Shown here piece by piece: positions 3,001 through 29,415 of a stretch of 64,000 bases of DNA (the first letter of the stretch is position 1; every line of letters begins with the position of its first letter). Below the pieces are notes generated by a model. That model made no database searches, was not told where the DNA came from, and saw nothing but the letters and a program-made list of their open reading frames with translations. This DNA is from Scenedesmus sp. PABB004. Lineage: Eukaryota. Made by a program: the position numbers and the translations under genes. Location: the NCBI GenBank assembly GCA_014905635.1, contig JABVCE010000039.1:1-64000 (forward strand). Direction: 5' to 3'.

Positions 3001-6000
3001 TGCAGCCCCGGCTCCAAGTACAACCAAGCCACCCAGGCGTCCAACCAACCCCAGCCAGCAGGCGTGCTGCGTGAGTGGCGGCCGGGCGCAGCTGCATTGT
3101 GCTGCTGCGGTCTGCTGCTGCGGTCGGCAGCTGCTGCGGCTGAGAGCTGCTGCGGCTGAGAGCTGTTGCGGCTGGCAGGACAGCCTGCTAGCGCGCCTGC
3201 ACAACCAGCGCTCGTGCCGGCCCTGAGCTCACGCGCGTGTGTGTGCTGCCGCCCTGCCGCGCCGCAGACGGACTGCAAAACGTGCTACGACTTCCCCGAC
3301 CTGTGCGGCTCCTACGACAACGGCTGCGGCACCATCATCACCTGCACGTGCCCGCCCGACAAGCCGTACTGCCACCAGACCGACCTGCTGCGCGGCAACT
3401 CGGACCCAGGCTTTTGCTCCGACAACCCCTTTGTCCCCAGCCGCGACCTGGACGTCTCCATTGCCAAGAGCGGCCCCACCGATCCGCAGCTGGTCGGTAC
3501 CGATTTGACTTCACGCTCACGGTGCGCGTGGAGAAGAGGGAGCAGGGCGCAACGCAACGACGTCAACGTCACCGACGCGCTGCCCGCGGGGCTAGTGCTG
3601 GTGTCCGCCAAGCCCGACAAGGGCAACTGCTTCTCCTCGGGCGCCACGATCACCTGCAACATCGGCGCCATGTCGCTGGCGGAGACGGTGTTTGTCAGCG
3701 TGCGCGTCAAGGGCACCGCCGCGGGCTCGTGGACCAACGTCGCCACGGTCAACGCGACCGGCGACACCAACCCGAGCAACGACCAGGCCAACAGCACCGT
3801 GCAGGTTGCCTGCCTGTCATGCACAACTTACGCTGAGCTGTGCGGCACCTTCAGCGACGGCTGCGGCGGCACCATCAATTGCACCTGCCCGGCGAGCGCG
3901 CCGTACTGTCACCAAACACAACCAAGCTGCTGCGTGCAGGGCTGTCGGGCTATTGCTCGGACCAGCCTATTAACCCCACAAACCTGGCGGACGTCGCGAT
4001 CTACAAAACAGGGCCCGCTATGACCCGGTGCAAGGCCATGAGTTCAACTTCCTGTTGACAGTGCGCGTGGTGGACGGCCTCGCGGGCGCCAAGAACGTTG
4101 TGGTCAAGGACACGCTGCCCGCCGGCCTCGAGCTGGTTGCGGTCATACCAGGTGCGCGCCGTGCGCGGCCGTGTGGCAGCCCGTCACACGGGCTGCCGCA
4201 GGCGCACGCACCGCCTGGGGCCAGGCCACCTGACCCAGGCTGCTGGCGGCCAGCGACAAAGACAAAGACAAAGATGGTTACATCTCAGGCTCGCGCCCAT
4301 TGATCCCGCGCGCCCTTCAGGGCGGTGTCCCGCATCTTGTAGATATCCATTACATAATCGGCCACCGAGTGCACTGCAGCGCCCTCCAGATCTGAGGCCT
4401 TGCTTGTCGCCCGCCCGCCGCGTCGCAGACACGGGCTGCACCGTGCAGTTCCCGCTCATCACTTGCCCTCTTGGCTCAATGAGCCTCGCTGAGACACGCT
4501 ACGTCAACATCCGCGTGAAAGGCAACGGGTACGGGACTTACACCAACCAGGCAGAGGTGTCAGCAACCAACGACCGCAATCCCGGCAACAACAAGAGCAA
4601 CGCAACAGTCACTATCATTCAGGTGTGAGGGCACATCGGAACCCATGCGCAGCGTGGCAGTCTGCCGCGCTGCGCAGAGGAGGCCGCTTGCACGCCGCTG
4701 CAGTGCAGCATGCACACATGTGTGCAACTGCCCTCTTGCGCTCAATGCCCCAACCATGATGCCCACAGAGTACGCCTTTCAGAGGCTCCGACATGTCGAT
4801 CGCCAAGAGCGTGTCGTCGCCGTCGGTGTGCTGATCAGCAGCCAGGTCAACTACATCACCACCAACGTGGGCGCCGGCCACCGCCGGCGGCGCGCGTGAT
4901 CGTGAACGACACGCTGCCGGCCGGTCTTGCGTTTGCCACGCCCCTGCCAGCAGGTGCGTCGGGTGGGGCGGGGGGCTCAGGCTTGTAATCCAGCCGCTGG
5001 CTGGGCCGCGCAGCGGCTGGGCGCGCGCGGCTGCCCGCCCGCCCCCCCCCCCCCCCCACCCCCCCCCCAGCGCGCAGCTTGCTGGCGCCAACCACCTGGC
5101 TGCCGGCGCTTACGGCGTGGCGCGCGCTGCTCGCGCACGCAGGCTGCTCCCAACGCACGCAGGTGCTCACGTGTGGTCCCAGCAGCGTGGCCGCTGGCGA
5201 CAAGCTCACGTACCTGGTGCCGGTCAAGGCCGTTGCAGTGGGCAGCTGGAACAACTCTGCGCGTGTGTCTGCCGACAACGATGTCAACCCATACAACAAC
5301 GGCCCCGTGGTTGCGCCCGTCACAGTCACCCGCACGTGCGCGCAGTACTATGCAGACGGCAGCCGCTACGCCTGCAGCCCCGGCTCCAAGTACAACCCAA
5401 GCCAGGCGTCCAACCCCAACCCCAGCCAGCAGGCGTGCTGCGTGAGTGGCGGCCGGGCGCAGCTGCATTGTGCTGCTGCGGTCTGCTGCTGCGGTCGGCA
5501 GCTGCTGCGGCTGAGAGCTGCTGCGGCTGAGAGCTGCTGCGGCTGGCAGGACAGCCTGCTAGCGCGCCTGCACAACCAGCGCTCGTGCCGGCCCTGAGCT
5601 CACGCGCGTGTGTCGCTGCCGCCCTGCCGCGCCGCAGACGGACTGCAAAACGTGCTACGACTTCCCCGACCTGTGCGGCTCCTACGACAACGGCTGCGGC
5701 ACCATCATCACCTGCACGTGCCCGCCCGACAAGCCGTACTGCCACCAGACCGACCTGCTGCGCGGCAACTCGGACCCAGGCTTTTGCTCCGACAACCCCT
5801 TTGTCCCCAGCCGCGACCTGGACGTCTCCATTGCCAAGAGCGGCCCCACCGATCCGCAGCTGGTCGGTACCGAGTTTGACTTCACGCTCACGGTGCGCGT
5901 GGAGAAGGGCAGCAGCGGCGCCAACGACGTCAACGTCACCGACGCGCTGCCCGCGGGGCTAGTGCTGGTGTCCGCCAAGCCCGACAAGGGCAACTGCTTC

Positions 6001-8606
6001 TCCTCGGGCGCCACGATCACCTGCAACATCGGCGCCATGTCGCTGGCGGAGACGGTGTTTGTCAGCGTGCGCGTCAAGGGCACCGCCGCGGGCTCGTGGA
6101 CCAACGTCGCCACGGTCAACGCGACCGGCGACACCAACCCGAGCAACGACCAGGCCAACAGCACCGTGCAGGTTGCCTGCCTGTCGTGCAACTCGTCCTA
6201 CGTCGGACTTTGCGGCACCTTCAGCGACGGCTGCGGCGGCTTCATCACCTGCACGTGCCCGCTCAGCAAGCCGGTCTGCAACAAGTTGCCGGGAGCACCA
6301 TCGGGCGTGTGCGCGGACCGGCCCATTGACCCCACCGCACTTGCAGACATTGCCATCACCGAAACTGGCCCCACCACCACCCAGGTGATCGGCCAGGTCT
6401 TTGACTTCAAGCTCACCGCCACCGTGGTCGACGGACTCGACGGCGCCAAAAACGTGGTCATCACAGACCGCCTGCCGGGCGGCCTCGAGCTTGTTGCCGT
6501 CAGGCCGGGTGCGCGCGCCGCGCGCCTGCGGGGCGCGGGCCGTGCAGCCAAGCCCTGGCCTTTGAGCACGGCCCTGGCAGCGCGCCACGCCTGGTCGCCC
6601 GCTGCCCCGGCGCCCGGCGGCGCGGCGCCTGCCGCCAATTGCCTCCGCTGCAACTGTGCTGTGCTGCCGCCGCCGTTGCTGCGCAGACACTGGGTGCACT
6701 ATTCGCTATCCTGTGATCACCTGTGCGGTCGGGGACCTAGCCTTTGCTGGGACCTACTCGCTGGCAGTCACGGTCAAGGCGGCGCGTGCGGGCAGCTTCA
6801 ACAACCGTGCCTCGGCCAACGCAACCAACGACCGCAACCAGGGCAACAGCAAAGCGGAAGCGCGTGTCACCGTGGTGCGCTGACCCGCGCGGGCGCGCGT
6901 GTGGCCGCGGCCAGTGGCTGGCGGACAGCCGCCCCAACTGTGTTGCTGGGGCGGGCGCGGCGCGGCGCGGCGCGGCGCAGCGCACCCTTGCTTGCTGCCC
7001 GGTCCATGCGCGCGCGCTGTGCTGCCGCTCACCCGCGGCGCCCGCCTGCCCCGCTCGTGCGTCCACAGGTTGGCGGCGCGTGCTGCACCAGCAGCGGGCG
7101 CTGCCTGGTGGTGTCCGAGTCGGCTTGCGTGGACGGCGTGTACAACCCTGGCCAGAACTGCGGGAGCGTGACGTGCGCGCGCAAGCCCACCATCGGCTCG
7201 TGCTGCGTGGGACAGGACTGCCGCAACAACTACACGCTCAACGCCTGCACCCAGGACGCGGGCAACTTTTACGCCAACCAGACCTGCAACTCAAAGACAT
7301 GTGGCAGCGACCCGCCAGTGGCCCCGCGCGGCGCGTGCTGCCAGCCGGCTCAGAGCAAGTGCACGCCTAACGCCACGGCGGCCTGGTGCCAGGCGCAGGG
7401 CGGTCAGTGGGCAAAGGACGAGGCCTGCACGGTCGCCACCTGCCCTGCCGCCATTGGCGCGTGCTGCGTGGGACAGGACTGCCGCAACAACTACACGCTC
7501 AACGCCTGCATCCAGGACGCGGGCAACTTTTACGCCAACCAGACCTGCAACTCAAAGACATGTGGCAGCGACCCGCCAGTGGCCCCGCGCGGCGCGTGCT
7601 GCCTGCCGGCTCAGAGCAAGTGCACGCCTAACGCCACGGCGGCCTGGTGCCAGGCGCAGGGCGGTCAGTGGGCAAAGGACGAGGCCTGCACGGTCGCCGC
7701 CTGCCCTGCTGCCATTGGCGCGTGCTGCCTCGCCAGCGGCGCGTGCGCGGAGGGCACTGCCAGAGTGTGCCGCGCCGACGACGGCACCTGGAACCGCGGC
7801 TTGACCTGCAGCCAGGTTGCCTGCCCCATCCTACCGGCGGCCACGGGCGCGTGCTGTGACTCAATCGCACGCAAGTGCACAGCGCCCGTGCGCGAGTCGG
7901 CTTGCGTCAACGGCACGTGGACGCAGAACGCGAACTGCACGGTGGACGTCTGCCCGGCGGCGGTGAGCGTCGGCGGCCTGCCGCGGGCTGCGCGCGCGCG
8001 CCGCCTCCCCAGCGCAGGTCGCGCGTGCCCGCCGCCGCTCGAGAACGCGCGCGCGCCGGCCCCCTACCGCTGCGCCGGCCCCCACCAGCGCTCACTTGCC
8101 CCGCCGCGCCGCCGACGCGGCCGCAGTTCTGCGTTCCCACCTGGCGGATGTGCGAGCCCTGCACGCTCCCCGGCTGCAACCCCTGCTGCGACAGCACGAG
8201 CGCGTGCAAGCCCGTCTACGGCATCCACACGTCGTGGTCCGCGTGCAAGCCGGGCGAGGGCTGCCGCCCCGAGGGCCAGCCCTGCGGCGAGTGCGGCGGC
8301 GGCGGCGTCTGCTGCGACGGCCTCACTTGCAAGTGGGACCACTACGGCAAGCGCGGCGTGTGCACCAAGCCGTTTGCGTGCAAGCAGATCGGCCAGGCGT
8401 GCGCCGTGCCGCGCGACTGCTGCCCCGGCTCCACCTGCGGCACGGACGGCAAGTGCCGTCCGTGCGACTGCAAGCGCAAGTGCCGCAAGCACGACCAGCG
8501 CTGCGCCGCGCAGCGTGAGGCGGAGTGCCAGATGCTCTCGGCCGCGGCCGCAAGCGCCGTGCTGACTGGGCCGAGCGGCGCGCTCATCCAGGTCGGCGGG
8601 CGCTGA
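93..8606 (+). CDS. Large multi-exon Cys-rich protein with DUF11 (OmcB-like conserved repeat) domains; 5' end not seen; apparent frameshifts in the early repeat copies
   Basis: Repeated D-x-SIAKS...F-FTLTV...A-DV-VTD-LPAGL-LVS...ITC-IG...G-WTN-A-V...D-NP-NN modules, CGxxxDGCGGxIxCTCP linkers, GACC repeats at 7070-7960 and a Cys-rich last exon ending TGA at 8604-8606; GT-AG introns separate the modules. Confidence 0.8.
925..6880. repeat. Intragenic tandem triplication of a 2.0-2.4 kb exon+intron unit
   Basis: 2419-3820 nearly identical to 4790-6185 (offset about 2370), introns included; 925-1765 similar to 2950-3915. Confidence 0.9.
4255..4400 (-). mobile_element. 3' fragment of a non-LTR retrotransposon inside an intron
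   Basis: Lower-GC block not seen in the paralogous introns; minus strand reads EGAAVHSVADYVMDIYKMRDTALKGARDQWARA-TGA, then TGTAA, then (TTTGTC)3; no clear target-site duplication. Confidence 0.6.
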
Positions 8607-8757
8607 GCGCGCCAGTTGTTCTTTGGGGTCGAGCGAGACGCGTCTGGGAACTGTCTATTTCAGATGCGTGCGAGCGGCGGATGCTCAGCAGCCAGGCAGG
8701 CGGGCCGCGGTCAGGGCTATCACGCGGCCCGCCTGCAGCTGGCGCACACGCACGTGA

Positions 8758-8842
8758 AGTTGTTGTTGTTACAGGGGGTTTGAGTAGGCCAGGGAATAAG
8801 CACTGCTAGTGCCAGGGGAGTACGCGCGAGTACGAGGCCCCC
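8758..8842 (-). mobile_element. Putative 85-bp retroposed insert
   Basis: Ends TGTAACAACAACAAC on the minus strand; flanked by direct repeat CACGTGA (8751-8757 and 8843-8849). Confidence 0.45.
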
Positions 8843-10721: not shown

Positions 10722-10786
10722 AAAACCCTAAACCTAAAACCTAAAAACATAAAAACCTAAAAAACTAAACCCTAAAACCTAAAACC
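10722..10786. repeat. Degenerate telomere-like (CCCTAAA/CCTAAAA) tract
   Basis: aaaaccctaaacctaaaacctaaaaacataaaaacctaaaaaactaaaccctaaaacctaaaacc. Confidence 0.85.
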
Positions 10787-14222: not shown

Positions 14223-14386
14223 TGCGCGCCGGCTGCCAGGGGGCGCGGCTGGGATGCAGCGTGGCGGCGGCACAACCGCCGAAGAGCCTAGCAGGTGTCT
14301 CCATGTGCCCTGTGGTAGCCTTGCCCTTAGCCTTGTTTGCGTCCATAGAGAGCAAAACGGAAAACGTCCCAGTGCTCAGCAAGTAT

Positions 14387-15577
14387 TCAAGGGGTTGCTG
14401 CTTGACAAGCATTGTTGACGCATGAAAAGGTTGCGCACTCAGTGGTATACGTGCAGACGTCGCCAGTCGCCTTGATACCCTACGTAGCAAGAAGAACACG
14501 GCATGTTGAGCGATTGGCACAACATACATAAGCTTGCGCAAATGTGACAGCAGCCAACGCGCCTGTTTACACAAGTAAGAGTTGTCAACTTGGACGTCGC
14601 AGTTTTGGCTTGCACAATCGGCATCGTCTTGGCATATCTCATTCAGAGCAGCTAAGCCCTGCGTGAGGAGCAACTTAGCGGTGGGTTGATGATGCTATTT
14701 TGAAACCAATGTTATAAACCCTAATCGCAAATAACCGATGCCCCAAACCGCAATTATCTAACTAGCTCAACTTTGTCGAACCCCAAACCCTTAGGGCCTA
14801 AACTCATAACCACCCCATAGCAACGCACCGACGCGACGCACTGCCCGTCTGCACAATTTGTAGAGGTGCAGTTGGCGTTGTCTGTGCAGCTGCCGCCGAC
14901 GTCCACAACGCCCTGCGCGCGGAGCGGCAGCGGGCGGCATAAGTGCAGTGTGGTGAGGTCGGCGCACGTGCACGCCGCATGCCGCGCGCCGGATATGCTG
15001 CCGCCCGCAAGGCGCGCGCACTCACCGTCGCATAGCACTTGCCGGCGATGCAGTTGGTGGTGGTGCAGTTGGCGTTGTCTGTGCAGCTGCCGCCGACGTC
15101 CACAACGCCCTGCGCGCGGAGCGGCAGCGGGCGGCATAAGTGCAGTGTGGTGAGGTCGGCGCACGTGCACGCCGCATGCCGCGCGCCGGATATGCTGCCG
15201 CCCGCAAGGCGCGCGCACTCACCGTCGCATAGCACTTGCCGGCGATGCAGTTGGTGTTGTTGTTGTTACACGCAGGCTCAGTCGGGATTCCCGACTCGGG
15301 GCAGGGCAAGAACGAAGGCGTTCTTGGGCGGTACGCTTGGTTAGTTGGTGGTGGTGCAGTTGGCGTTGTCTGTGCAGCTGCCGCCGACGTCCACAACGCC
15401 CTGCGCGCGGAGCGGCAGCGGGCGGCGTGGGTGCGGTGTGGTGAGGTCGGCGCACGTGCACGCCGCATGCCGCGCGCCGGATATGCTGCCACACGAAGGA
15501 CACACACACGCACCGTCGCATAGCACTTGCCAGCGATGCAGTTGGTGGTGGTGCAGTTGGCGTTGTCTGTGCAGCTG
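14387..15577 (-). CDS. Cys-rich repeat protein fragment with one 4-Cys repeat per exon; 5' end missing; one exon disrupted by an insert
   Basis: Phase-0 exons GVVDVGGSCTDNANCTTTNCIAGKCYAT on a 197-bp period, then GLAALNEICQDDADCASQNC..., last exon GIKATGDVCTYTTECATFSCVNNACQAATP-TGA. Confidence 0.7.
15257..15342 (-). mobile_element. 86-bp retroposed insert with 8-bp target-site duplication
   Basis: Absent from sister repeat copies; AGTTGGTG duplicated at 15249-15256 and 15343-15350; ends TGTAA(CAA)3; contains two perfect 8-bp inverted repeats. Confidence 0.8.
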
Positions 15578-15705
15578 CCCTAAACCTAAAACTAAAAACC
15601 TAAAAAACCTAAAACCCGAAAAACCTAAAACCCTAAAAACTTAAAAAAAAAACCTAAAACTCTAAAACCTAAAACCTATAAAACCTAAAATCCAAAACCT
15701 AACCC
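15578..15705. repeat. Degenerate telomere-like tract
   Basis: Irregular CCCTAAA/CCTAAAA units interrupting an exon mid-sequence. Confidence 0.85.
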
Positions 15706-18221: not shown

Positions 18222-21200
18222 CTAGTACTCCTCCTGCTCCACCCACTCGTCCTCGGCCAGCTTTTGCAGGCGCCGCAGGTACGCGTCGGTGAGGAAGCTC
18301 TTGGTCGCGCCGCCGGCGCCCGCCGCGGCGCCCTGGCCCACCTCCAGCCCCTCCGCGAGCCGCAGCGCGCGCTTGAGCAGCTGCTCCGCCGCCGCCTTGA
18401 CCTGGCTGTTTGGCTCGCGCTGCAGGATGGAGCAGATGCTCGGCAGCAGCGCGACCAGGTGCGGTTGCAGCGCGCCGTCGTCAGCCGCCGCGAGCTTGGA
18501 CAGGCTGACCATGGCCTGGCGCTGAACCTCGGAGCTCTGGTCAGGGCCCAGGAGCGTGGTCATGGCGCCCACCAGCGCCGGCCCGATGTTGCGGTGCGCG
18601 GCAAAGAGGCGCACAACCGCGCGCCCGCCAGCGGTCTTCACGCTCGCCTGCGGCGGCAGCGGCGGCGGCAGTGGCGGCGACGTCAGCGCAGCGCACGCTG
18701 CGCACAACATCCGACCAGGCCCTCCGCGTGCGCGCAGGGCTGCGGCGCCCCCGGTGCAGCGCCGCCGTGCCGCGCTGGTGCGTGACGCGTCACGCACCAG
18801 CTCGGCGTCGCGTGTGGCCTTGGCCGCCGCCTCCACCGCGGCGCGCAGCACGCCGGCCTCCTCCATGCTCGGTGCCGCAGCACTGGCCACTGCGGCCAGC
18901 AGCATGGCCGCCAGCTCGCGCGCCTCCTTGCTGCCGCTGATGCCCGCTGCCGAGAGCGGGCCGGCGCTGAGCAGCTGCGACAGCCTGCTGTGCCCCGCGA
19001 CCGCCGCAAACTGCGCCATCGCGCTGACCAGCGCCGCGGCCTGCGGATCTACGCCCCCGCTCGTGGCGCCGGGGCGGCCCGACAGCACCTTGTACAACTC
19101 CAGCAGCTGGCCCTGCACCTTGTCCAGCGTGGGCTGCGTGAGGCGGTCGCCGCTGGCGCGCAGCGCGCCGCGCAGCGCCACGAGGTATGCGGCGCTGGTC
19201 TCGGGGTCCGCCGCGCTCGCCGCGTTGGCGGCCAGGTCCCCCACCAGCGCCTCCACGCGCGCGCTCAGCCGCGTGAGCTCGCCCAGGTTGTCCGCCGCTG
19301 TCATGCGCACAGCGTCGGCCTGCGTCGCGCGGCAGCGGCGCGGGGCGTCAACGCATCAGCGCGGGCGCACTCGCGGCGGGCTGCAGCGCGCCCGGGCGAC
19401 AGCGCGCGGCGCGCCGCGCCACGGGGCGCGCCTGGTCGTTGAGGCACTTGAGGAAGGTCGTCTGCAGCTGGGGCACAAAGGGCTTGAGCCCTGCGCTTGC
19501 GCGGCGGATGAGGAGGCCGAGCGTGACGAGGATGGCCGCCTTGGTGGCGGGCGGGAAGCGGTCGCCGATGATGCGGATGAGCGGCCCCGTGATGGCCACC
19601 ACAAACGGCTTCAGCCCCTCCTCGCTCGTCAGCACGATCAGCTCGCCCAGGCCCTCCGCCGCCACCTCGCGCACCTCGGGCGAGGAGCCCTGCGCAGCGC
19701 GGCGCGCGGGCGGGGGTGAGCGGGGGCCAGGGCGTCAGAGGCCGCAGGGGCAGGGGGCCTGCGCCGCAGCCCCGCCACCAGGGCGCGCGCCGCGCGCTGG
19801 CGCAGCATCGCACCTGCAGCACGCCCTGCAGGTAGATCGGCACAAACGGCGCAAGCGCCTTGGGCGGCAGCAGCAGCCCCCGCAGCTGCAGCGGCCCGCC
19901 GCGCCGCTTGCGGCGCTCCTTCTCGCGCGCGCCCGCGATGGCGTCCTTGAGCCCCGCCACGTGCCCCGGCGCGTCCTCCTTCGGGATGCTGCCCGCCAGC
20001 GCCTCGCAAGCCTCCCACGCCGCCAGCACCAGCACGTCGTCGTCTTCGGCTAGCAGCAGCACCAGCGCCTGCGCACGGCGGCGGCCGGGGCGGCGGCCAA
20101 GGGCGTGGGGCGCGGCGCGGCGCGGTTGCGGGCGGCAGGCGGCAGGGGCACGCGCGCCCCCGCTGGGCATCGGATGGATCCGTAACAGGTTTTCCACACC
20201 GGCTCCAGTGTCGAGCTGGATTCAGATCGGCAAAATGGTATCGTCACCTGCCCTTGGAGCGCGGTGCGCGCGCGCGCGCTGCTGCCGCGCGCTCCCGCGC
20301 CGCACCGTGAGCAGCTCGTCGACGTAGGGCGTGAGGCTGTGCTTGGTGCTGCGTGCGTACGCCGCCAGTAGCCGCGCCGCGCCCAGCGCGCGGCCCGCCA
20401 CGTCCTCCAGGCCCTTGAGCAGCTCCGACACCAGCACGCGCACGCTCTCCTCGTCCGTCGCCAGCGCCACCGCCAGCGCGGCCTCGCTCGCCGCCTCCTC
20501 GCGCGGGTCGTGCGGCGCGTCGGCGCCGTTGGCCTGGCCCGCCGGAGCGTGGCCGCTGGCGAGCGCGAGGCAGGTGGCCATGATGGCGGGGATATGGTGC
20601 ATCAGCACCGACGCTGCGCGCGCGGGCGGGCGGGCGGTGCAGGGGCGGCGGGGTGAGCGCAGGCAGGCGGCAGCATGGCGTGAGCAGAGGGCGAGGGCGC
20701 GGCACCCGGCTGGCGTCAGCTGTGTTGTTGTTGTTGAATTTGTCGGCAGGTGGCGCCAGGCGCCCGCTGGGATTGTTGCAGTTGATAAGCCATCACGCGC
20801 CAGCGCCAGGCGGCGCGCCGCCAAAGCACGCGGCGCGCAGCAAGCAGCGTGCGTGCCGCGCCGTGCGACCGCCCACTCACATGCTGTGCCGGCGAGCTGC
20901 CCGATGGAGCGCAGGCCCGCGCTGCTGGTCGGCGGCTTCAGGAGCTTGGGCACGATGCCGTTGAAGACCTGGGGCCGCACGCTCAGGATGACGCGCAGGC
21001 CCTCCATGCTCTGCGCCGCGTGCGCGGGAGAGTCGAGGCCGTGCAGCAGGCTGGGCACCACGCTCTCCACCGCGCCGTGCGCGCCGCCCTTGAAGAGTAC
21101 GCCAAACGCGGCGCCCGCCGCCTCGCGCACGGCGGGGTCAGCGTCGCACAGCGCGCTCTGGATGGGCGGGAGGATGTCGGACAGGTGCTCGCCCAGCTGG

Positions 21201-24200
21201 TGCCGCGTCACGTTCTCCAGCAGCTGCGAGGTGCGTGGCGGGCGGCGCGCGAGGCGGCGCGCGAGGCGGCGCGCGAGGCGGCGCGCGGCATCGGCGTGCT
21301 GCATCGGCGCGGTGTCGGCGGCGATAAGTCGGCGCGCCTGGCAGGCACGCGGCGGGGCGCGAGCCGCGAGCGCGGGCGCACCTCCTTGAGCCCGGTGCAC
21401 ACGCCCTGGCGCGTCGCGGCGTCGGGGCTGGCCATGGTGTCGCGCAGGATGGGCAGCATGCGGTGCAGCACGCGCTCGCCCATCTTGCGCACGAGCTCGC
21501 CCAGGCAGCGCGCGGCGCCAGAGCGCCGGTCCTCGCCTGCGGGCGGCGGCGGGCGGCAGGGTCTGCAGGGGCGCGCGCGCAGGCAGGGGCGCTCACACAC
21601 AGCAACGACACACACAAGGGGGCGCTGGGCATCGGATGGATCCGTAACAGGTTTTCCACACCGGCTCCAGTGTCGAGCTGGATTCAGATCGGCAAAATGG
21701 TCTCGTCACCTGCCGCGCGCCACACACACATGCCTGTCACAGCACACAGCACGCAGGCAGCACGCGCGGGTCACGCGGCTCTGCTGGCGTCAGAGATAAG
21801 GGAAGTGAAGTTTGCATCACCGGCGCGGCCGAGGGGCCGTGCTCAAAGGATAGATTTGCCATCACGCGCCAGCAGAACCGCGCGGCGGGGCGGCGCGCAC
21901 CACGCAGCACCCCCCCCCTCCCCTCCCCGAAAGGCCCCAGCTCGCGCCGCGCACCCGGGGCGGCGAGGGCGCGGATGACCTCAGCCATGAGCGCGGGCAG
22001 GATCTCCTGCAGCGTGCGGGGCGTGTTGACGACGATGGTCTTCCAGATGTGCAGACCCGTGTTGCGAACGACGTACTGCACGTCGCTGCGCGCGACGTAG
22101 AGCTTGGACAGCACCTCCGCGTTGCGCTCCCGCCCGAGTGCCTCCTGGATCGACACGCCGTACGTCTCGCACGCCGCGCCCTCGTCGTCGCTGCCGCCGT
22201 CGAGCTTCACCTTGCCGCTCGTGCCCGCGACCTGCCCGGGCGGCGGCGAGGGGGGGGGGGGCGTCAGGGGGCCGCACCCCATCCAGGCAGCAGCGGCGCA
22301 TACCCTGAGCAGTTGCCGCGCAGGGCGCGCGGCGCGGCGGCTGGTCGCGCCTTAAACAGCAGTTCGCCGCACAGCTCCAGGCTGGACTGGCGGATGCGCC
22401 AGTTGTCGCCGTCCAGGCCGGCCTCCACCGCGGGCAGCAGCAGCGGCAGGCAGCTGCGCGCGTACGCCTCCACGAAGCACCGCCCCGCCGCCAGCGCGGC
22501 GTCGCGCACGCCCTCCACCTGCGCGCACGCGACCGGGGCGGCGCTCGGCGGGGCGCCACCGCTGCGCGCCGTGCGCGCGCGGGCGCCGCCCCCGCGCGGG
22601 GTGTGTGGTTCACCTCGTCGCTGAGTCCGTCGAGGATGAGGGGCAGCACCTCGCCCAGGTGGTCCTGGAAGGGCGCCTCCATGGTGAGGGGGAGGTACCT
22701 GAACAGCGTGAGGTGGCCCTCGCGCACAAACGGATTCTTGCTGCCCGCGCTCGCCTCCAGCTCCGGCAGCAGCTCGCCCAGGTGCGCCTCGCCCATGACC
22801 GCCAGCACCTCGGCCAGGCCCTGCGCCGCGCCCGAGCGCTCCACGCTGCTGCCCTCGCTGCGCAGCGTTGCGAGGAGCCAGGGCAGCAGGTCCCCCAGCG
22901 CCGCGGGGCCCATGCCCTTGAGCAGGCTGCCCATCGCCCGCGCCGCGGTGGCGCGGACCTCGGGCAGCGGGTCCAGCAGCGCCTTTTGCAGCTCCGGCAT
23001 GAGCAGCGGAACGTACGGCGTCATGTCCTGGATGGGGGGGGGGGCAGGGCAGGGCGGGGGTCGGGGCAAGGGGCGGCGGCGCGCGCAGCGCGCGGGCAGC
23101 CTCGGCTGCCGCGCCCGCGCGCCCGCGCCCCCGCCCGCGCCCCCGCCCGCGCCCGCGCCCGTGGCCGCGCGGCTCGCCTTGGGGTCGTTGGTGAGGCTGC
23201 ACATGTTGCCCACGATGCGCGCGGCGCGCTTCTTGGTGTCGCCGCTGCGGTCGCGCAGGCCGCGGTGCACCACGGGCACCAGCAGCGCCAGGCTGGGCGC
23301 GTCGATGGTGTGGATAAACGTCGTGCCCAGCAGCGTGTCCAGGCAGGGTCGCGTCGAGGCGTTGGGCTCCGCGATGGCCGCCATGAGCCCCGGCACCAGC
23401 GCCGCCATCTCGGGCGACCGGATCACGCTGCCGACCTGCACCGCGCGCACGGCGGGCGGCGGTGCCGGGGCGCCGACCACGCGCGCGCGCGCAGCGTCGC
23501 CGCTGCCTGCAGGCGCGGCCGCCTGGCGCCAGCGCAGCGCCCTGCGCCCCTCGCTCACCTCGCCCAGCGCCTCCTTGGCGGCGGCCTGCACCTTGGGGTG
23601 CGCGTCGCTGAGCACGCTGCTGAGGCGCGGCACGATGGTGGGCAGGCAGCTGCCGAGCTGCTTGGGCGCGCAGTGCGCCATGGCGCCCAGCAGCTGGATC
23701 GAGCCCTGCTTGGTGCGCCACGCGCTGTCCTCCAGACCCTTCAGCAGCGCCGGCAGCACGAGCTTCACGCCGCTCGCGCTCAGCTGGCCCATGATCGACC
23801 GCGCCGCATCCTCGGCCGCCGCACGCACCTGCGGGCCGGGCCGGGCCGCGGCGGCGGCGCGCGGGCGGGGGCTCAGCAACCCCGGGCGCGGGCGTGATGG
23901 TGCGCGCATGGGCGCGGGTTTGCCTACCTGGGGCGACGCGTCGCCGAAGCACTGCAGGAGGAGTGGGAGGATGTGGATGACGTACGGCTCAAACAGGCGG
24001 CCCAGCTTCTCGCACAGGCACTCAAATGCCTGCAGCGCGCCCTCGCGGCCCTCGGGGTCGCGCTTGTCCTCCACGCGCGCCTTGAGCGCCTCCAGCAGGC
24101 CGTAGCCCTTCAGGCTCGACATGCCCAGCCCCTTTACCGCGCCCGCCAGCCCGTACGCGGCGCCGCGGCGCAGCCCGTACCCCGCCTGCCCGCCCAGGCG

Positions 24201-27200
24201 CAGGCCCTCCAGCAGGCGGTCAAGCAGGCCCTCCACGTAGGCCTTGTCCTCAGCCAGCGGCGCCACGAGGCGCGGCAGGCAGTTGGACACCGCGCGCTGC
24301 ACCGCCTCGCTCGGCGTGGACAGCACCTCCAGCAGCAGCCCGATGATGGAGCGGCGCTGCGCGCGCGCGGCGCGGGCAGGCAACGGGGGGCAGCTCGGGC
24401 ACTGCCTGGCTGGTGCAGCCCACTCGCAGGTCACGCAGCACACCGCACGCAGGCGGGGCGCGCGGCGCGCGCGGCTCTGCTGGCGTCAGAGATAAGGGAA
24501 GTGAAGTTTGCATCACCGGCGCGGCCGAGGGGCCGCGCTCAAAGGATAGATTTGCCATCACGCGCCAGCAGAGCCGTGCGGCGGGGCGGTGCACAGACCC
24601 GTCTACCCTGCCGAGGCTCCCCGTGGTGCGGCGCCGCACCTTGTCGTCGCCCGGCGCGAGGTGCCCCGCCATCATGCCCAGCAGCACCACCACGCCCTCC
24701 CGCACGAGGTCGTAACGCGCCTCGTCCACGCCCAGCCGCGCCGCCGCGCCGGGCTCGAGGTAACCCTCAAACTGCGGCAGCAGCGCCTGCGACAGGCTGT
24801 CGCCCCGGCTCTCCACCAGCGCAACGCCTGATGTGGCGGGGGCAGGCCGCGGGCAGCGCACGCGTCGGCCGGCCGCGCCGCAGCAGTGGTGCAGCAGCAG
24901 CGGCGGGCGCAGCAGCCGGCGCGGCCTGCCGCCGTGGTCCTGCCGCGCCGCTCACCTGCCGCCACCATGGCCTCCCGAATGTCGTCGCGCGGCTCCGCCA
25001 GGCCCCGCGTCACCAGGAAGTGCAGCGCGCCGCGCACCTCGTCGGAGCCCAGCACGCCCGCGAGCGCCTCCAGCCCCGACGCCACCCCCCGCCGCGCGTT
25101 GGCCTGCGCGTCGCGCGCGGCGTCCCGCGCCGCGCGCTCCGCGTCGTCGAGCAGCACCGCCGCGGCCACCTCGTCGTCGGGCTCCAGGTCGTCGCCGTAC
25201 AGCGCCAGCACCGCCTCCAGGCACGACGGCGTACACGCGGGCGCCGCGCGCAGCGCGTCCGCCAGCGCCGCCGCCGCCGCGCCGCGCGTGTCGGGCTGGT
25301 CCGAGGTGATGTGCCGCACCAGCAGGGCGATGACGTCCGGCCCGAGGCTGCACCCCGCCTGAGGCGGCGGGGCGGGGGGCGGCGGCGCGGCAGCGGCGGC
25401 GGCGTCAGCGCGGCGGCTCCAGCACGCGCACCGCGCACACGCACGCACGCTCTTGCCTGCCGTAGCGCACCTGCGCCCACAGCTCCTGCGCCGCCGTCGC
25501 GTTGGTCTCGTCGGAGTCGTGCCGCGCGAGCGCCAGCACCGCAAGCGCCTCGCCGCTCTCCGGCTGCACGCCCTCCGCCAGCGTGGGCACCGACGGCAGC
25601 GCGGCGAGTGCGCACGCGCGCACCGCGGGCGAGCCCGCCAGCAGGCCGCTGACGGCGGGCATGAGCTCTGGCTCCCCCACGCCCGCGCACAGGCTGCGCA
25701 GCAGCGGCGCGACGCGGTCACGGAAGGCTGGGATGCGGCCGAGCACGGCGTAGCAGAGCTCCAGGCTCTCGCCGCGCGGGATGTCCTGCTCAGGCGACAC
25801 GTGCAGCCCCAGCACGCGCAGCGCGTCGTCGTGGAGCGGGCTGATCACGGGGCAGCTCAGCACCGCCGCCAGCACGGGGAAGACGAGCGCGTAGCTCGGC
25901 CCCGGCAGCGGCCGGCGCGGCGCCACGGTGGCCGCGCACAGCGCGGCCAGCACGTCGGCGACGCCCGGCGCAGAGGGGAAGGTCTCGTAGCTCACGCCGT
26001 CGCCGCGCCGCGCCGCGAGGCCCACCAGGCGCAGGCAGCCCGCGAGCAGCAGGCTGCGCCCGCCCAGCGGCGGCGGCATGCACCGCGCCAGGCTGCGCAC
26101 CGCCGCAAACGCGGCGTCGCCGCAGATGGGGCTGCCCAGCAGCGGCTGGCAGAGCGCGCCGAGCTCGCGCAGGTGGCTGGCCGCGAAGGCCGTGTTGCCC
26201 TCCACCGCCGCGCGCAGCGCCGCGAGGCCGGTGTCGAGCCGCGCCTGGAGGCACACCACGCCGCGCCGCACCTCCGCCTCCTCCTCCAGCTTGCGCGCGC
26301 GGAACTCGGCCTGCCGCGCCGCAGCGTCCTTGGGGCCCTTGCCCGACACGGCGCCGCCGCCGCGCGCGCCGCCACGCCCGCCGGCGCCGACGGCCGACGG
26401 GCGCGCCGCGGCTGCGGGCTTGGCCGGCGCGGGCTCGTCGTCGTCGTCGTCGTCGTCGTCCGCCGTGGCAAACGCGCGGTTGTCGCTCTGCGGGCGCGCG
26501 GTGCCGGCGTCAGTGCGCGGGCGCGGCCGCGCCGGCGGCTGCAGCCCGGGCACGCCTCGGCGCACCACGCGCGCGCGCGCGCTGGCGTGCAAGCGCGCAC
26601 TCACCCTGAACCGGCCTCGCGCCTTGCGCACGTTCTTGCTGACGACCACCTCGGGCACGTAGACGCCCTCCGGCACGACCTCGGACGCCAGCAGGCCCTC
26701 GGGCGTGCGCCAGACCGCAATGTCGTCGTCGCTCACCGCGTCGTGGCGCGACCGGTCAAGCCAGCCCGCCAGGCCCGCCAGCAGCGGGTCCAGGCACCCG
26801 CCCGGCGCGGCGGCCATCGCCGAGCCCAGCGCGAGCTGCGCCGCCGCGACGTCGCCGGGGCAGGGGCTGCCCAGGCCGCCGTCGCCCAGCAGCACGGCCA
26901 GCACGCCCGGCGCGCCGCTCTTGAGCGCCGCGGGCACCGTGCCGAGCAGGCGCCGGCAGGCCGCCGCCCAGGTGGCGTGCTTGTTCGCCACGCCCGCGGT
27001 GATGGCGGGGTGGTGCGCCATGAGAAGCAGCTCGGCCAGGCCACGACCCTCCAGCGCGGCGGCGCAGGCCGCGGTGTGGTGCGCGGGCGCGTAGCCCGGC
27101 GCGGCGCGCTCCGTGAAGGGCAGCAGCGCCAGCAGCGCGCGCGCAAAGGCGTGCGAGTAGGTGCCCGCCGCGTCGCTGACCGCCTCACCCGGCTCCGCCA

Positions 27201-29415
27201 GGACCAGCGCCTCGGTCGGCGCGTTGGCCCAGTGGCGCAGGCCCGCCAGCAGCGGGCCCAGCAGCGCCGGCGCGCCGGCCATGAGCGGCCGGCCAGCCGC
27301 GACGCCGCGGCGCCGCACCTCCAGGCTGTGGTGCAGCAGGCACAGCGCGAGCAGCTGGCAGACCGCGGCGTGGCTGGCGGGCTGCAGACGGTCCCCGTGG
27401 CACGCCAGCAGCGTCTGCGCCAGCTCCGCCGCGGGCGCCGCGTCGGCGGGCGCCAGCTTGGCCAGGGTGGCGGCCGACAGCAGCGGCGAGTCGGCTGCCA
27501 GCGGCGCGTCCCACACGCCCGCCTTGGCCAGTGCCGCGGCGGCGCCCGCGTCTGCGGCCGCCACCTGCGCCGCAAGGAGCAGCGCCGCGATGCCGTTGCC
27601 GCGCGCCACCGCCTTGGCGCAGCCCTCGGTCACCAGCTTGGCCAGCGGCGCGGCCAGCGGAGCCAGCCCGGAGGCCAGGCCCGGCGCGTCACGCACGGCC
27701 GCCATCGCCGCGACCAGGGCGGTGCGCCGGACCGAGTCCTTGGCGTCGCCCAGCGCGCCCGCCAGGCCCGTCGCCACGGGCGTGGGCACCTCGGCACAGC
27801 GCGGCAGCCACTCGGCCAGGGCGGCCAGCAGCGCCAGCTTCACCTCCTCAACGGCTGCGGCCGCGCGCAGGAGGGGTAGGCGGGGGGGGGGGGGGGGCAG
27901 GCAGAGCGGTCAGCAACACGGGCGAGCGTGGCGAGTGCAGACGCCACCGCCGCCGCGCTCCCCCCCTCCCTGCCCGCACGCCACTCACGCTCGTCCTTGA
28001 CGGCGCCAGCGCAGAAGGTGGCCGCGCCTGCCGCCACGGCCGCCATGTCGGGTGTGCGGGGCAGGGCGCTGAGGCTGGCCAGCGCGGCGGCGAGCGCGGC
28101 GCGCTCGCCCGCGAGCTTGATCTTGCCCTCCGCGCTGCCGTCCAGGACGCCCGTGACCTTGGCCACCAGCGCGCCGGCCACGCCCGCGTCCTGCACGCGC
28201 GCCGCGAGCGCGGCCAGCGCCGTGCCCGCGACGCCGCGCACCGCCTCCTTGGCGCGCAGCTGCTGCAGCAGCAGGGCCACCAGCTCCGGCGCGGCGGTGC
28301 TGAGGTTGAGGGTCATCAGCTCCAGCGCCCCGCCCAGCGCCGCGATGGCGGGCTCGGGCGTGCGCCGCGCGGCGCGGCTGACCGCGGGCAGCACCTTGTC
28401 CGCAACCTGCTCCGGCGTCAGCGCGCGCAGCAGCGGCGCAAACGCCGAGAGCAGCGCGGCCGAGGGCCGCTCCGGCGCCGCCAGCACGCGGTCGCACAGC
28501 ACCGGCAGCAGCGCCGCGACCGCCGCCTCGGCGCCGGGCGGCAGCTGCTGCGGCTCGCCCTGCTGCTGCTGCTGCTGCTGCGCCGCACCCGCCCGGCGCG
28601 GCAGCGCCGCCTGCAGCGCGATGCGCACGAGGCCGGGGCTGCCGCTGGCCGCGGCGGCCGCCTGGTAGTCGGCCGCGAGGCCCGGCCGCGCGCGCAGCAG
28701 CCGCAGCACCGCGCGCTGCGCCGCCGACCAGTGGTGCGCCGCGCCGCGCCGCGCGCCGCGGCCCGTCGCCGCGAGCGGGTGCGTGTCGGCCGCGTGCAGC
28801 GCGTCGAGCAGGCCGCCCTGCGCCTCCAGCAGCTTCGCCGCCGCCTTGGCGCTGCCCTCGGGCGGCAGCGCCTCCAGCAGCATGCAGCTCCACTCCAGCA
28901 GCCTGAACGCCGCCTGCGGCGCCTGCTTGCTCGCTGCCGCGCGCAGCAGCGCCGCGGCAAAGGCCTTGACGTACGCCTCGTGGCCCAGCGCGGCGCGCAC
29001 GAGCCGGTTCACCGCGCGCTGCTGCGAGCGAGCCTCGTAGGCGGGCAGTGTGTCCAGCACCAGGGCCGCCACCTCGCCGGCCCGCGCCTCCAGGAAGCCT
29101 GCGGCGGGCGGGCGGCGCGCTCTCCAACCGGCAGCGGCGGCTGCGCCCGCCGGCGGCCATGGCGGCCACGCTTGGTCCCGCAGCTGGCGCAGGAGATGCT
29201 ACACCCCAGAACGCACGCGCAGCGATCGGTGCCGCGCCCTGGCGTCGCGCAGGCTGGGCGCGGCGGGGCCGCATCACTCCCTGCCCCGGGCGCGGCCCAC
29301 CTGGCTCATTGTCGATGAGCGTCAGCAGCGAGGTCTGCCAGATCAGGCGCTCCTTGCCGCCCCGCGCCTCGGCCCAGGCGGCCGCGCGCAGGAGCGCGTC
29401 CGCGTCGTCGGCCAT
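18222..29415 (-). CDS. GCN1: GCN1/ILITHYIA HEAT-repeat activator of the eIF2-alpha kinase GCN2
   Basis: LEVLSTPSEAVQRAVSNCL, RRGAAYGLAG, WRTKQGSIQLLGAMAHCAPKQL, IDAPSLALLVPVVHRGL, DNWRIRQSSLELCGELLFK, IWKTIVVNTPRTL, ITGPLIRIIGDRF. Confidence 0.97.
20165..20253 (-). ncRNA. Intronic box C/D snoRNA, family A copy 1
   Basis: GGGCA/TGCCC terminal stem; box C GTGACGA, D' CTGA, D CCGA; guides CCATTTTGCCGA and GTTACGGATCCAT antisense to conserved LSU rRNA (sequence from memory). Confidence 0.8.
20709..20804 (-). ncRNA. Intronic box C/D snoRNA candidate, family C
   Basis: GCTGGCG/CGCCAGC terminal stem; box C GTGATGG; box D CTGA; AACTGCAACAA antisense to SSU rRNA TTGTTGCAGTT (from memory). Confidence 0.65.
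21628..21714 (-). ncRNA. Intronic box C/D snoRNA, family A copy 2
   Basis: Near-identical to 20165-20253 (one internal substitution seen) within otherwise unrelated intron sequence. Confidence 0.8.
21777..21879 (-). ncRNA. Intronic box C/D snoRNA, family B copy 1
   Basis: Long terminal stem; C GTGATGG, D' TTGA, C' GTGATGC, D CTGA; guide ACTTCCCTTATCT antisense to LSU rRNA AGATAAGGGAAGT. Confidence 0.85.
24472..24576 (-). ncRNA. Intronic box C/D snoRNA, family B copy 2
   Basis: Near-identical to 21777-21879; terminal stem GGCTCTGCTGGCG/CGCCAGCAGAGCC. Confidence 0.85.

Follow-up and report, generated by a model that had tools for sequence, protein, structure and literature searches.

Do the duplicated elements in the introns of a green-algal GCN1 gene make up a dedicated system for one stretch of rRNA, or are they an ordinary group of intronic snoRNA genes? 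In the window (the whole 64-kb stretch of DNA that was analysed), we find five snoRNA units, A1, C, A2, B1 and B2, distributed over four GCN1 introns and all on the strand of the gene (Table 1). We consider it probable that these units are box C/D snoRNA genes forming an intronic cluster of the ordinary green-algal type. This reading rests on the anatomy of the units, their intronic position on the sense strand, the in-register complementarity of their guides to rRNA and the guides that they have in common with Chlamydomonas snoRNAs. The arrangement is normal for green algae and not a new kind of system.

Host gene and snoRNA units

The proteins matching the host exon at 23928-24356 on the minus strand are named GCN1, ILITYHIA or eIF-2-alpha kinase activator GCN1 at source, the best match being an unnamed protein with 78% identity. 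Alignments of three homologues by tblastn cover the minus strand from 28199 down to 18225, and the N-terminal open reading frame probably extends to 29198. The exon downstream of the A1 intron begins where the tblastn alignment starts (20065), the exons flanking the intron with B1 and A2 align with GCN1 homologues, and the exon 3' of the B2 intron (24356-23928) is the one that gives the GCN1 matches. In Chlamydomonas and plants, PMC7671301 describes several snoRNAs, often duplicated isoforms, in the introns of one host, sometimes two per intron. The present locus resembles such clusters in its multi-snoRNA host, its duplicated isoforms and the two units in one intron, and differs from them in the host, which here is GCN1; in the literature searched, no paper was found on GCN1 as a snoRNA host.

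Table 1. Positions of the host gene, introns and snoRNA units in the window.
Feature	Position	Strand	Details
Host gene, GCN1/ILITYHIA homologue	18225..29198 (approximate extent)	-	Protein matches and tblastn
Intron with A1	20069..20305	-	GT 20305-20304, AG 20070-20069; boundaries predicted from sequence and reading frame
Intron with C	20614..20880	-	Boundaries predicted from GT-AG and frame
Intron with B1 and A2	21537..21954	-	GT-AG and frame
Intron with B2	24357..24639	-	Donor 24639, alternative donor 24606; acceptor CAG 24359-24357
snoRNA A1	20165..20253	-	C box GUGACGA 20241-20247; D' guide 20226-20238; D' box CUGA 20222-20225
snoRNA A1, 3' part		-	Hairpin 20204-20220; D guide 20174-20186; D box CCGA 20170-20173
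snoRNA C	20709..20804	-	C box 20790-20796; 5' guide 20772-20786
snoRNA C, 3' part		-	3' guide 20720-20738; D box CUGA 20716-20719
snoRNA A2	21623..21714	-	C box 21703-21709; D' guide 21688-21700; D' box 21684-21687
snoRNA A2, 3' part		-	D guide 21636-21648; D box CCGA 21632-21635
snoRNA B1	21772..21884	-	C box GUGAUGG 21859-21865; C' box GUGAUGC 21814-21820
snoRNA B1, 3' part		-	D guide 21794-21806; D box CUGA 21790-21793
snoRNA B2	24472..24576	-	C box 24555-24561; C' box 24510-24516; D guide 24490-24502; D box 24486-24489

Two repeats underlie the A and B units. The A repeat (92 nt, 20161-20252 and 21623-21714) is 99% identical between its copies and the B repeat (160 nt, 21740-21899 and 24436-24595) 93% identical. 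The likeness of A1 to A2 ends exactly at the borders of the snoRNA unit, with unrelated flanks, and that of B1 to B2 runs beyond the unit, by about 25 nt upstream and about 40 nt downstream. A preliminary description of this DNA had proposed intronic C/D snoRNAs in GCN1, and two duplicated elements in different introns with C/D boxes and terminal stems; the GT-AG introns, the sense strand and the GCN1 homologue matches bear out the former, and the analysis of repeats and anatomy the latter. Element C, a fifth snoRNA, was absent from that description. The window is 76% G+C, and the guides stand out as A+T-rich islands within it. Both strands of the 64 kb were also searched, in a crude way, for C/D units with a stem of at least 5 bp. 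Of the six candidates, four have an inner G+C under 0.62, and these four, A1, C, B1 and B2, all lie inside GCN1 introns and on the gene's strand; A2, with a stem of only 4 bp, was not picked up.

The B units consist of a 9-bp core stem, C box GUGAUGG, internal C' box GUGAUGC, a 13-nt guide and D box CUGA, with a doubtful D' box (UUGA). Their stems extend, G-U pairs included, to 18 bp in B1 and 14 bp in B2, and their fold z-scores are -6.2 and -6.75, respectively. C agrees with B in its terminal stem and C box (CUGGCGC GUGAUGG), the stem of C measuring 7 bp; in both, GUGAUGG agrees with RUGAUGA at 6 of 7 positions and the D box is CUGA. The A units run from stem GGCA(G) through C box GUGACGA, a 13-nt guide, D' box CUGA, a hairpin and a weak C' box (UGUGGAA) to a second 13-nt guide, D box CCGA and stem UGCC(C), the terminal stem measuring 5 bp in A1 and 4 bp in A2. 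The C box GUGACGA likewise agrees with RUGAUGA at 6 of 7 positions, and this variant occurs also in the conserved land-plant snoRNA family snoR32; the D box is CCGA, not CUGA, in both copies, which differ at one position in 92, just 3' of the C box.

The order of boxes, stems and guides is canonical, which favors the C/D reading. Counting against it are the non-canonical boxes, weak C' and 4-5-bp stem of A, whose fold is no better than that of shuffled sequence (z -0.46 and -0.76), and the LSU fragments examined, in which neither the D' half of B nor the 3' guide of C has a target. Rfam at gathering scores likewise gave no match in the whole window, and at E up to 10 in 19500-25500 its one weak hit (E 0.67) was to an unrelated family of bacterial sRNAs. 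The sequencing runs matching the locus were two low-share freshwater-metagenome DNA runs of one study, with no RNA run among them. The contigs of these runs over the locus are short and of low depth; one of 169 nt covers B2, and the differences listed for it include deletions at 24444 and 24456, both outside the snoRNA unit.

Guides and their rRNA segment

When the window is compared with three eukaryotic LSU fragments, exact A+T-rich matches of at least 12 nt occur only at three plus-strand strings, ATGGATCCGTAAC, TCGGCAAAATGG and AGATAAGGGAAGT; the remaining matches of 11-16 nt are G+C-rich throughout. The three strings correspond to three guides (13, 12 and 13 nt) that lie directly upstream of D or D' boxes, with complementarity, to the rRNA of other eukaryotes and not of the host, of 13 nt in B and, in A, of 12 nt plus one G-U pair (D') and 13 nt (D). 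Joined, they form a 33-mer that is exact and contiguous in all three of the LSU fragments retrieved (contigs scored LSU_rRNA_eukarya by Rfam), one of which shares only 84% identity with the rest. The guides cover positions 1-13, 12/13-24 and 21-33 of the 33-mer, so neighboring duplexes overlap by little, 1-2 nt in one case and 4 nt in the other. The earlier proposal that the guides tile a contiguous LSU segment thus holds in three independent eukaryotic fragments. A 29-mer of this rRNA had no match in viral contigs.

The 33-mer was placed at Arabidopsis 25S 1885-1917, the start of domain IV, because nine of nine listed modification sites then have the right base; 21 offsets were tried, and no other matched more than four of the nine. 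The predicted ribose-methylation sites are A1889, G1900 and A1909 in this numbering, and it counts against them that the Arabidopsis list of 25S sites, mapped or predicted, includes none of the three. By the structure line of the Rfam LSU model, the first site belongs to a long-range helix, in the 3' portion of one of its strands, the second falls in a single-stranded linker and the third on the 5' strand of a hairpin just before a large variable region; we take the elements of this neighborhood to be H61, H62 and ES27.

In the mechanism that we propose, the snoRNAs would be transcribed with the GCN1 host pre-mRNA and probably released by splicing and subsequent exonucleolytic trimming to the terminal stem and box C/D core, after which the snoRNPs would direct fibrillarin to the 2'-OH of the rRNA nucleotide that pairs with the fifth guide nucleotide before D or D'. 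The D guide of B would then specify the A in AGAU[A]AGGG, the D' guide of A the second G in UCG[G]CAAA, and the D guide of A the A in UGG[A]UCC; counting to the fifth nucleotide ourselves, we arrive at the three sites named in the preliminary description. Expression, processing, snoRNP assembly and methylation we infer from sequence. For C, there was no good target within LSU model positions 776-2242, and its 5' guide is presumably antisense to a conserved stretch of 18S rRNA.

Relation to known snoRNAs

The snoRNA CrCD75 of Chlamydomonas reinhardtii reportedly goes back to Chen et al. 2008. Its sequence, in the PMC5122169 supplement, has in common with B the D guide ACUUCCCUUAUCU, the CUGA box and the terminal-stem C/D form. 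By eye, the 13-nt guide and CUGA of B are identical, over 17 nt, to those of CrCD75 and of a metagenomic locus, L005, and since guide and box are the same, the predicted target of CrCD75 is that of B. In this comparison the terminal stems differ in sequence yet pair (GAGUCU/AGACUC versus CUGGCG/CGCCAG). The D' half and internal region of CrCD75 also differ, the long extended stem is particular to B, and CrCD75 has a host locus on a separate scaffold of its own. The B-type pattern was found at two loci in metagenome contigs. L005 is a genuine B-type orthologue; its host gene matches U3snoRNP10 (UTP10-like), shows no similarity to GCN1 and contains other, unrelated snoRNA candidates. The other locus (41% G+C, no terminal stem seen) was rejected as an orthologue and taken as a chance match.

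The guide UUACGGAUCCAU of CrCD04, as given in that supplement, has the same target as the D guide of A. However, CrCD04 carries it in the 5' (D') half, beside an AUGA box, and has an unrelated second guide and canonical boxes, whereas A carries it in the 3' (D) half, together with the G-site guide, and has non-canonical boxes. We regard the two as functionally analogous but not clearly orthologous, and A was rejected as a member of the CrCD04 family on the grounds of guide position and unrelated second guide. C and CrCD16, as listed there, have a 13-nt 5' guide in common, AACUGCAACAAUC (AACTGCAACAATC), whereas the 3' guide of CrCD16 is U24-like (ACCACCAAG) and that of C is CAA-rich, with no identified target. 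The Chlamydomonas snoRNAs for which coordinates are given there, CrCD75 and CrCD16, occupy three different scaffolds. U24 (Arabidopsis 25S C1439, A1451/G1452) is, like A, a single snoRNA family with sites about 10 nt apart, but the two target duplexes of A overlap by 4 nt.

A guide to the G site was not among the Chlamydomonas sequences listed in the available portion of the PMC5122169 supplement, which is weak evidence, and the O. tauri snoRNA supplement contains none of the three guide strings. The O. tauri table gives other predicted sites nearby, 25S A1767 and A1780, which by their offset from two shared sites would correspond to Arabidopsis 1881 and 1894. The dual-guide pattern of A had no match in metagenome contigs.

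Alternative readings and meaning

The preliminary description had gone further and read the locus as a co-expressed module for a single region. Of this, co-transcription with the host is a fair inference. A dedicated module, in which A and B act in fixed order on the 33-nt segment or chaperone its junction and GCN1 ties them to ribosome-stress sensing, is very unlikely, although the three guides do cover one contiguous rRNA segment from a single host gene, B1 and A2 sit within one intron, and both types are duplicated. Such a module is unsupported because C, in the same gene, has the guide of CrCD16 and finds no match in the LSU fragments of the segment. Nor is co-hosting conserved, as CrCD75 and CrCD16 lie on different Chlamydomonas scaffolds and the orthologue of B, the one instance of a related alga's guide in an unrelated host gene, lies in the UTP10-like gene with its unrelated candidates. 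The overlaps between duplexes are short, and the ordered binding that had been drawn from them is already a well-accepted general notion for snoRNPs whose pairings overlap (PMC4288182), with nothing particular to this locus. Nothing links the stress-sensor role of GCN1 to the guides, and no paper in the literature searched combined 'GCN1' with 'snoRNA host gene'.

Turning to the individual elements, the A units might be decaying or non-functional copies with drifted boxes, leaving only B, and perhaps C, to make a working snoRNP. Their CCGA in place of CUGA, the C at position 5 of the C box, the weak C', the short stem, a fold indistinguishable from shuffles and the lack of a dual-guide match in metagenome contigs would fit such decay, but we think it unlikely: the copies are nearly identical despite unrelated flanks, both guides still match perfectly, over 12-13 nt and in register, and a conserved land-plant family has GUGACGA as its C box. 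Moreover, in the kink-turn of box C/D RNAs the U altered in the D box stands opposite the one altered in the C box, so that the two U-to-C changes may compensate for each other. Quite unlikely is the more ambitious reading in which A is a lineage-specific dual-guide snoRNA with a compensated C-C kink-turn pair for U-U and overlapping adjacent targets (33-mer positions 12-24 and 21-33, which span the linker and the hairpin's 5' strand ahead of the large variable region). One snoRNP would then act twice in succession, or would keep the junction open during early domain IV folding, and the G site would be a ribose methylation not yet described. That simple intronic repeats happen to match rRNA has a negligible probability. 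The Rfam result and the absence of an RNA run among the matching runs would agree with chance, but three independent A+T-rich matches of 12-13 nt abut D or D' boxes and fall in one 33-nt rRNA stretch, in a window of 76% G+C, and one guide with its box is identical in CrCD75 and L005.

The ordinary intronic cluster leaves the understanding of snoRNAs or of GCN1 unchanged, and its main value is annotation: five snoRNA genes with predicted targets in an unannotated, extremely G+C-rich green alga. PMC5122169 reports 131 snoRNA families found in Chlamydomonas only. The guide specificities of CrCD75 and of CrCD04 (GG[A]UCC), filed as Chlamydomonas-only, now occur in a second alga, which argues for real, conserved chlorophyte methylation at the Arabidopsis-equivalent A1889 and A1909. 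Minor novelties are the G-site guide, the dual-guide layout of A and its boxes GUGACGA and CCGA; the G1900 guide and this pair of boxes offer small leads for studies of kink-turn tolerance in snoRNPs.

Duplicated box C/D elements in the introns of a GCN1 homologue

On the minus strand of the window, which has a G+C content of 76%, a homologue of GCN1/ILITYHIA extends from about 29.2 kb down to about 18.2 kb. Three GCN1 homologues used in tblastn searches tile this strand from 28199 to 18225, and exon 23928–24356 (−) matches proteins named by their sources as translational activator GCN1, ILITYHIA, or eIF-2-alpha kinase activator GCN1. The best match of this exon is an unnamed protein (78% identity), and the named ones include, among the matches listed, those of Chlorella variabilis (62%) and Dunaliella (60%). 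With intron borders inferred from the reading frame and splice motifs, four GT-AG introns of the gene were found to contain five short elements, all on the gene's strand: two copies each of the box C/D snoRNA candidates A and B, and a fifth candidate, C. The preliminary description had reported duplicated C/D elements in GCN1 introns, and the boxes, the terminal stems, and the identity between copies (A1 and A2, 99% across 92 nt; B1 and B2, 93% across 160 nt) confirm this; its inventory was correct for A and B, but did not mention C. The likeness of the A copies stops exactly at the unit borders, with flanks that do not align, and that of the B copies extends about 25 nt upstream and about 40 nt downstream of the unit.

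Positions of the snoRNA host introns and of other features (window coordinates unless L005, a metagenome contig, is named)
Feature	Position	Strand	Content
GCN1 intron	20069–20305	−	A1, 20165–20253
GCN1 intron	20614–20880	−	C, 20709–20804
GCN1 intron	21537–21954	−	A2, 21623–21714; B1, 21772–21884
GCN1 intron	24357–24639	−	B2, 24472–24576
U3snoRNP10-matching gene (UTP10/HEATR1-like)	L005 6392–6685, 7938–8019, 12475–12598, 13597–13694	+	CrCD75/B orthologue
GTTGTTGTTGTT-containing motif	8751–8776, 15245–15274, 20716–20748	+	three copies
Interstitial arrays	10722–10786, 15582–15702		degenerate 7–8-nt units (AAACCTAA / AAAACCT)
Relatively A+T-rich stretch	~14330–14900
Tandem duplication	2519–6190		~2.37 kb, copies 95–100% identical
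Third copy of the duplication	~1037–1668		73–81% identical
Exact tandem repeat	14865–15256		197 nt × 2, 100% identical
Tandem repeat	7187–7708		261 nt × 2, 98% identical

Candidate A consists, in order, of a stem, GUGACGA, a 13-nt guide, CUGA, a hairpin, a weak C' box, a second 13-nt guide, CCGA, and the closing stem, and B of a long stem, GUGAUGG, a 5' half, a hairpin, GUGAUGC, a 13-nt guide, CUGA, and the closing stem. C, whose intron lies between the one hosting A1 and the one hosting A2 and B1, has a stem and C box identical to those of B; for the 3' guide, rich in CAA, no target was found in the LSU rRNA fragments compared. The complement of this guide is the third copy of the GTTGTTGTTGTT-containing motif, and clear C/D anatomy was not seen at the other two copies. 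When both strands of the whole 64-kb window were scanned in a simple way for C and D boxes together with a stem of at least 5 bp, six candidates emerged. A1, C, B1, and B2 are the four whose interior falls below 62% G+C; A2 is absent because its stem is 4 bp. Compared with shuffled sequence, B1 and B2 fold far better (z = −6.2 and −6.75), and A and C no better (z = −0.4 to −0.8), which is what one would expect of snoRNAs whose structure depends largely on protein.

One LSU rRNA segment covered by three guides

The complements of three A and B guides join into a contiguous 33-mer, as had been proposed, and this 33-mer was found exactly in three contigs from prokaryote assemblies, which are not the alga's own 25S rRNA. 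Rfam calls all three LSU_rRNA_eukarya (790, 1569, and 726 bits), and they are therefore eukaryotic contaminants, short LSU rRNA contigs in assemblies titled Kocuria, Pyrinomonadaceae MAG, and Streptomyces. As one of them shares just 84% identity with the others, the 33-mer is common to at least two organisms; the Rfam LSU consensus carries a nearly identical sequence. By the Rfam structure line, the 33-mer begins in one strand of a long-range helix (first third), passes through an unpaired linker (middle), and ends in the 5' strand of a hairpin preceding a large variable region (last third), elements that we take to be H61, H62, and ES27. Among the exact matches of at least 12 nt between the window and the three LSU fragments, only the guide complements are A+T-rich.

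For Arabidopsis numbering, a modification list (supplementary table 2, PMC8351944) was slid along the three fragments at 21 offsets. Offset 1885 placed the correct base at 9/9 listed sites in all three fragments, and the remaining offsets at no more than 4/9, so the 33-mer corresponds to Arabidopsis 25S 1885–1917. The predicted targets are thus AGAU[A]AGGG for the D guide of B (equivalent to A1889), UCG[G]CAAA for the D' guide of A (G1900), and UGG[A]UCC for the D guide of A (A1909). Tabulated nearby are U1882 (U34), pseudouridine 1897, G1913 (predicted), and U1918; none of the three predicted sites is in this Arabidopsis table. Since human and yeast sites appear in it only alongside an Arabidopsis one, their absence is uninformative for those two species (PMC8351944).

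The B duplex (33-mer positions 1–13) overlaps the A D' duplex (12/13–24) by 1–2 nt, and A's own two duplexes overlap by 4 nt; the three guides therefore cannot all pair fully at once. Overlapping snoRNA pairing demands that association and release be sequential (PMC4288182). Sequential binding is a general snoRNA feature and nothing special to the GCN1 locus, and the earlier interpretation is supported in part, for the intronic guides directed at one LSU segment.

Relatives of the elements and their host genes

The Chlamydomonas reinhardtii snoRNAs of Chen et al. (2008) are reprinted in the supplement of PMC5122169, part of which was available. There, CrCD75 is identical to B in the 13-nt D guide and the CUGA box, CrCD16 and C have 13 nt of the 5' guide in common, and the GG[A]UCC guide of A also occurs in CrCD04-1 and CrCD04-2, but in their 5' half beside an AUGA box. 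Among the entries listed in that part, these three families hold Chlamydomonas sequences only; the paper itself puts the number of families confined to Chlamydomonas at 131 (PMC5122169). The land-plant family snoR32 has the same C box as A, GUGACGA (PMC5122169).

In metagenome contigs the dual-guide pattern of A had no match, and the B-type pattern matched two loci. One of these (L004, 41% G+C) looks like chance. The other (L005, 66% G+C) is a clean B orthologue with the stem GAGUCU/AGACUC and CUGAUGG, identical to B in guide and D box and unrelated in the 5' half. No GCN1 similarity was found across 16 kb of L005 (tblastn, three GCN1 proteins), and the adjoining plus-strand ORF matches Pfam U3snoRNP10 (E = 8e-8, just below the curated cut-off). 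Conservation therefore does not extend to the host gene. In Chlamydomonas, too, CrCD75 and CrCD16 are on different scaffolds. Besides the B orthologue, the U3snoRNP10-matching gene of this algal contig contains, in the same orientation, two or more further good box C/D candidates. L005 thus seems to have an intronic cluster of snoRNAs as well, hosted by a gene for ribosome biogenesis.

Nature of the locus and other repeats

Overall, this is an intronic snoRNA cluster of the kind ordinary in green algae, and it adds new members to known families. The anatomy of its elements and the guides that they have in common with published snoRNAs are plain from the sequences, and the elements are most likely standard methylation guides. 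The snoRNAs would be co-transcribed with GCN1, released from the spliced introns, then joined by the box C/D core proteins, and would guide ribose methylation at the three predicted sites during early pre-60S assembly. Beyond the known families, one guide and one box variant are of minor interest. The layout of A is mildly unusual in joining a G-site guide (D') to an A-site guide with overlapping targets, and no counterpart of the G-site guide was found among the snoRNA sequences compared, including those listed in the available part of the PMC5122169 supplement. Both copies of A also keep two U-to-C changes, at position 5 of the C box and position 2 of the D box. These positions face each other in the kink-turn as a U-U pair, and the paired changes could be compensation or decay.

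Elsewhere in the window, the tandem duplication has a more diverged third copy, and the two interstitial arrays, whose units are similar to the telomere repeat of the Chlamydomonas type in its complementary form, flank the relatively A+T-rich stretch.
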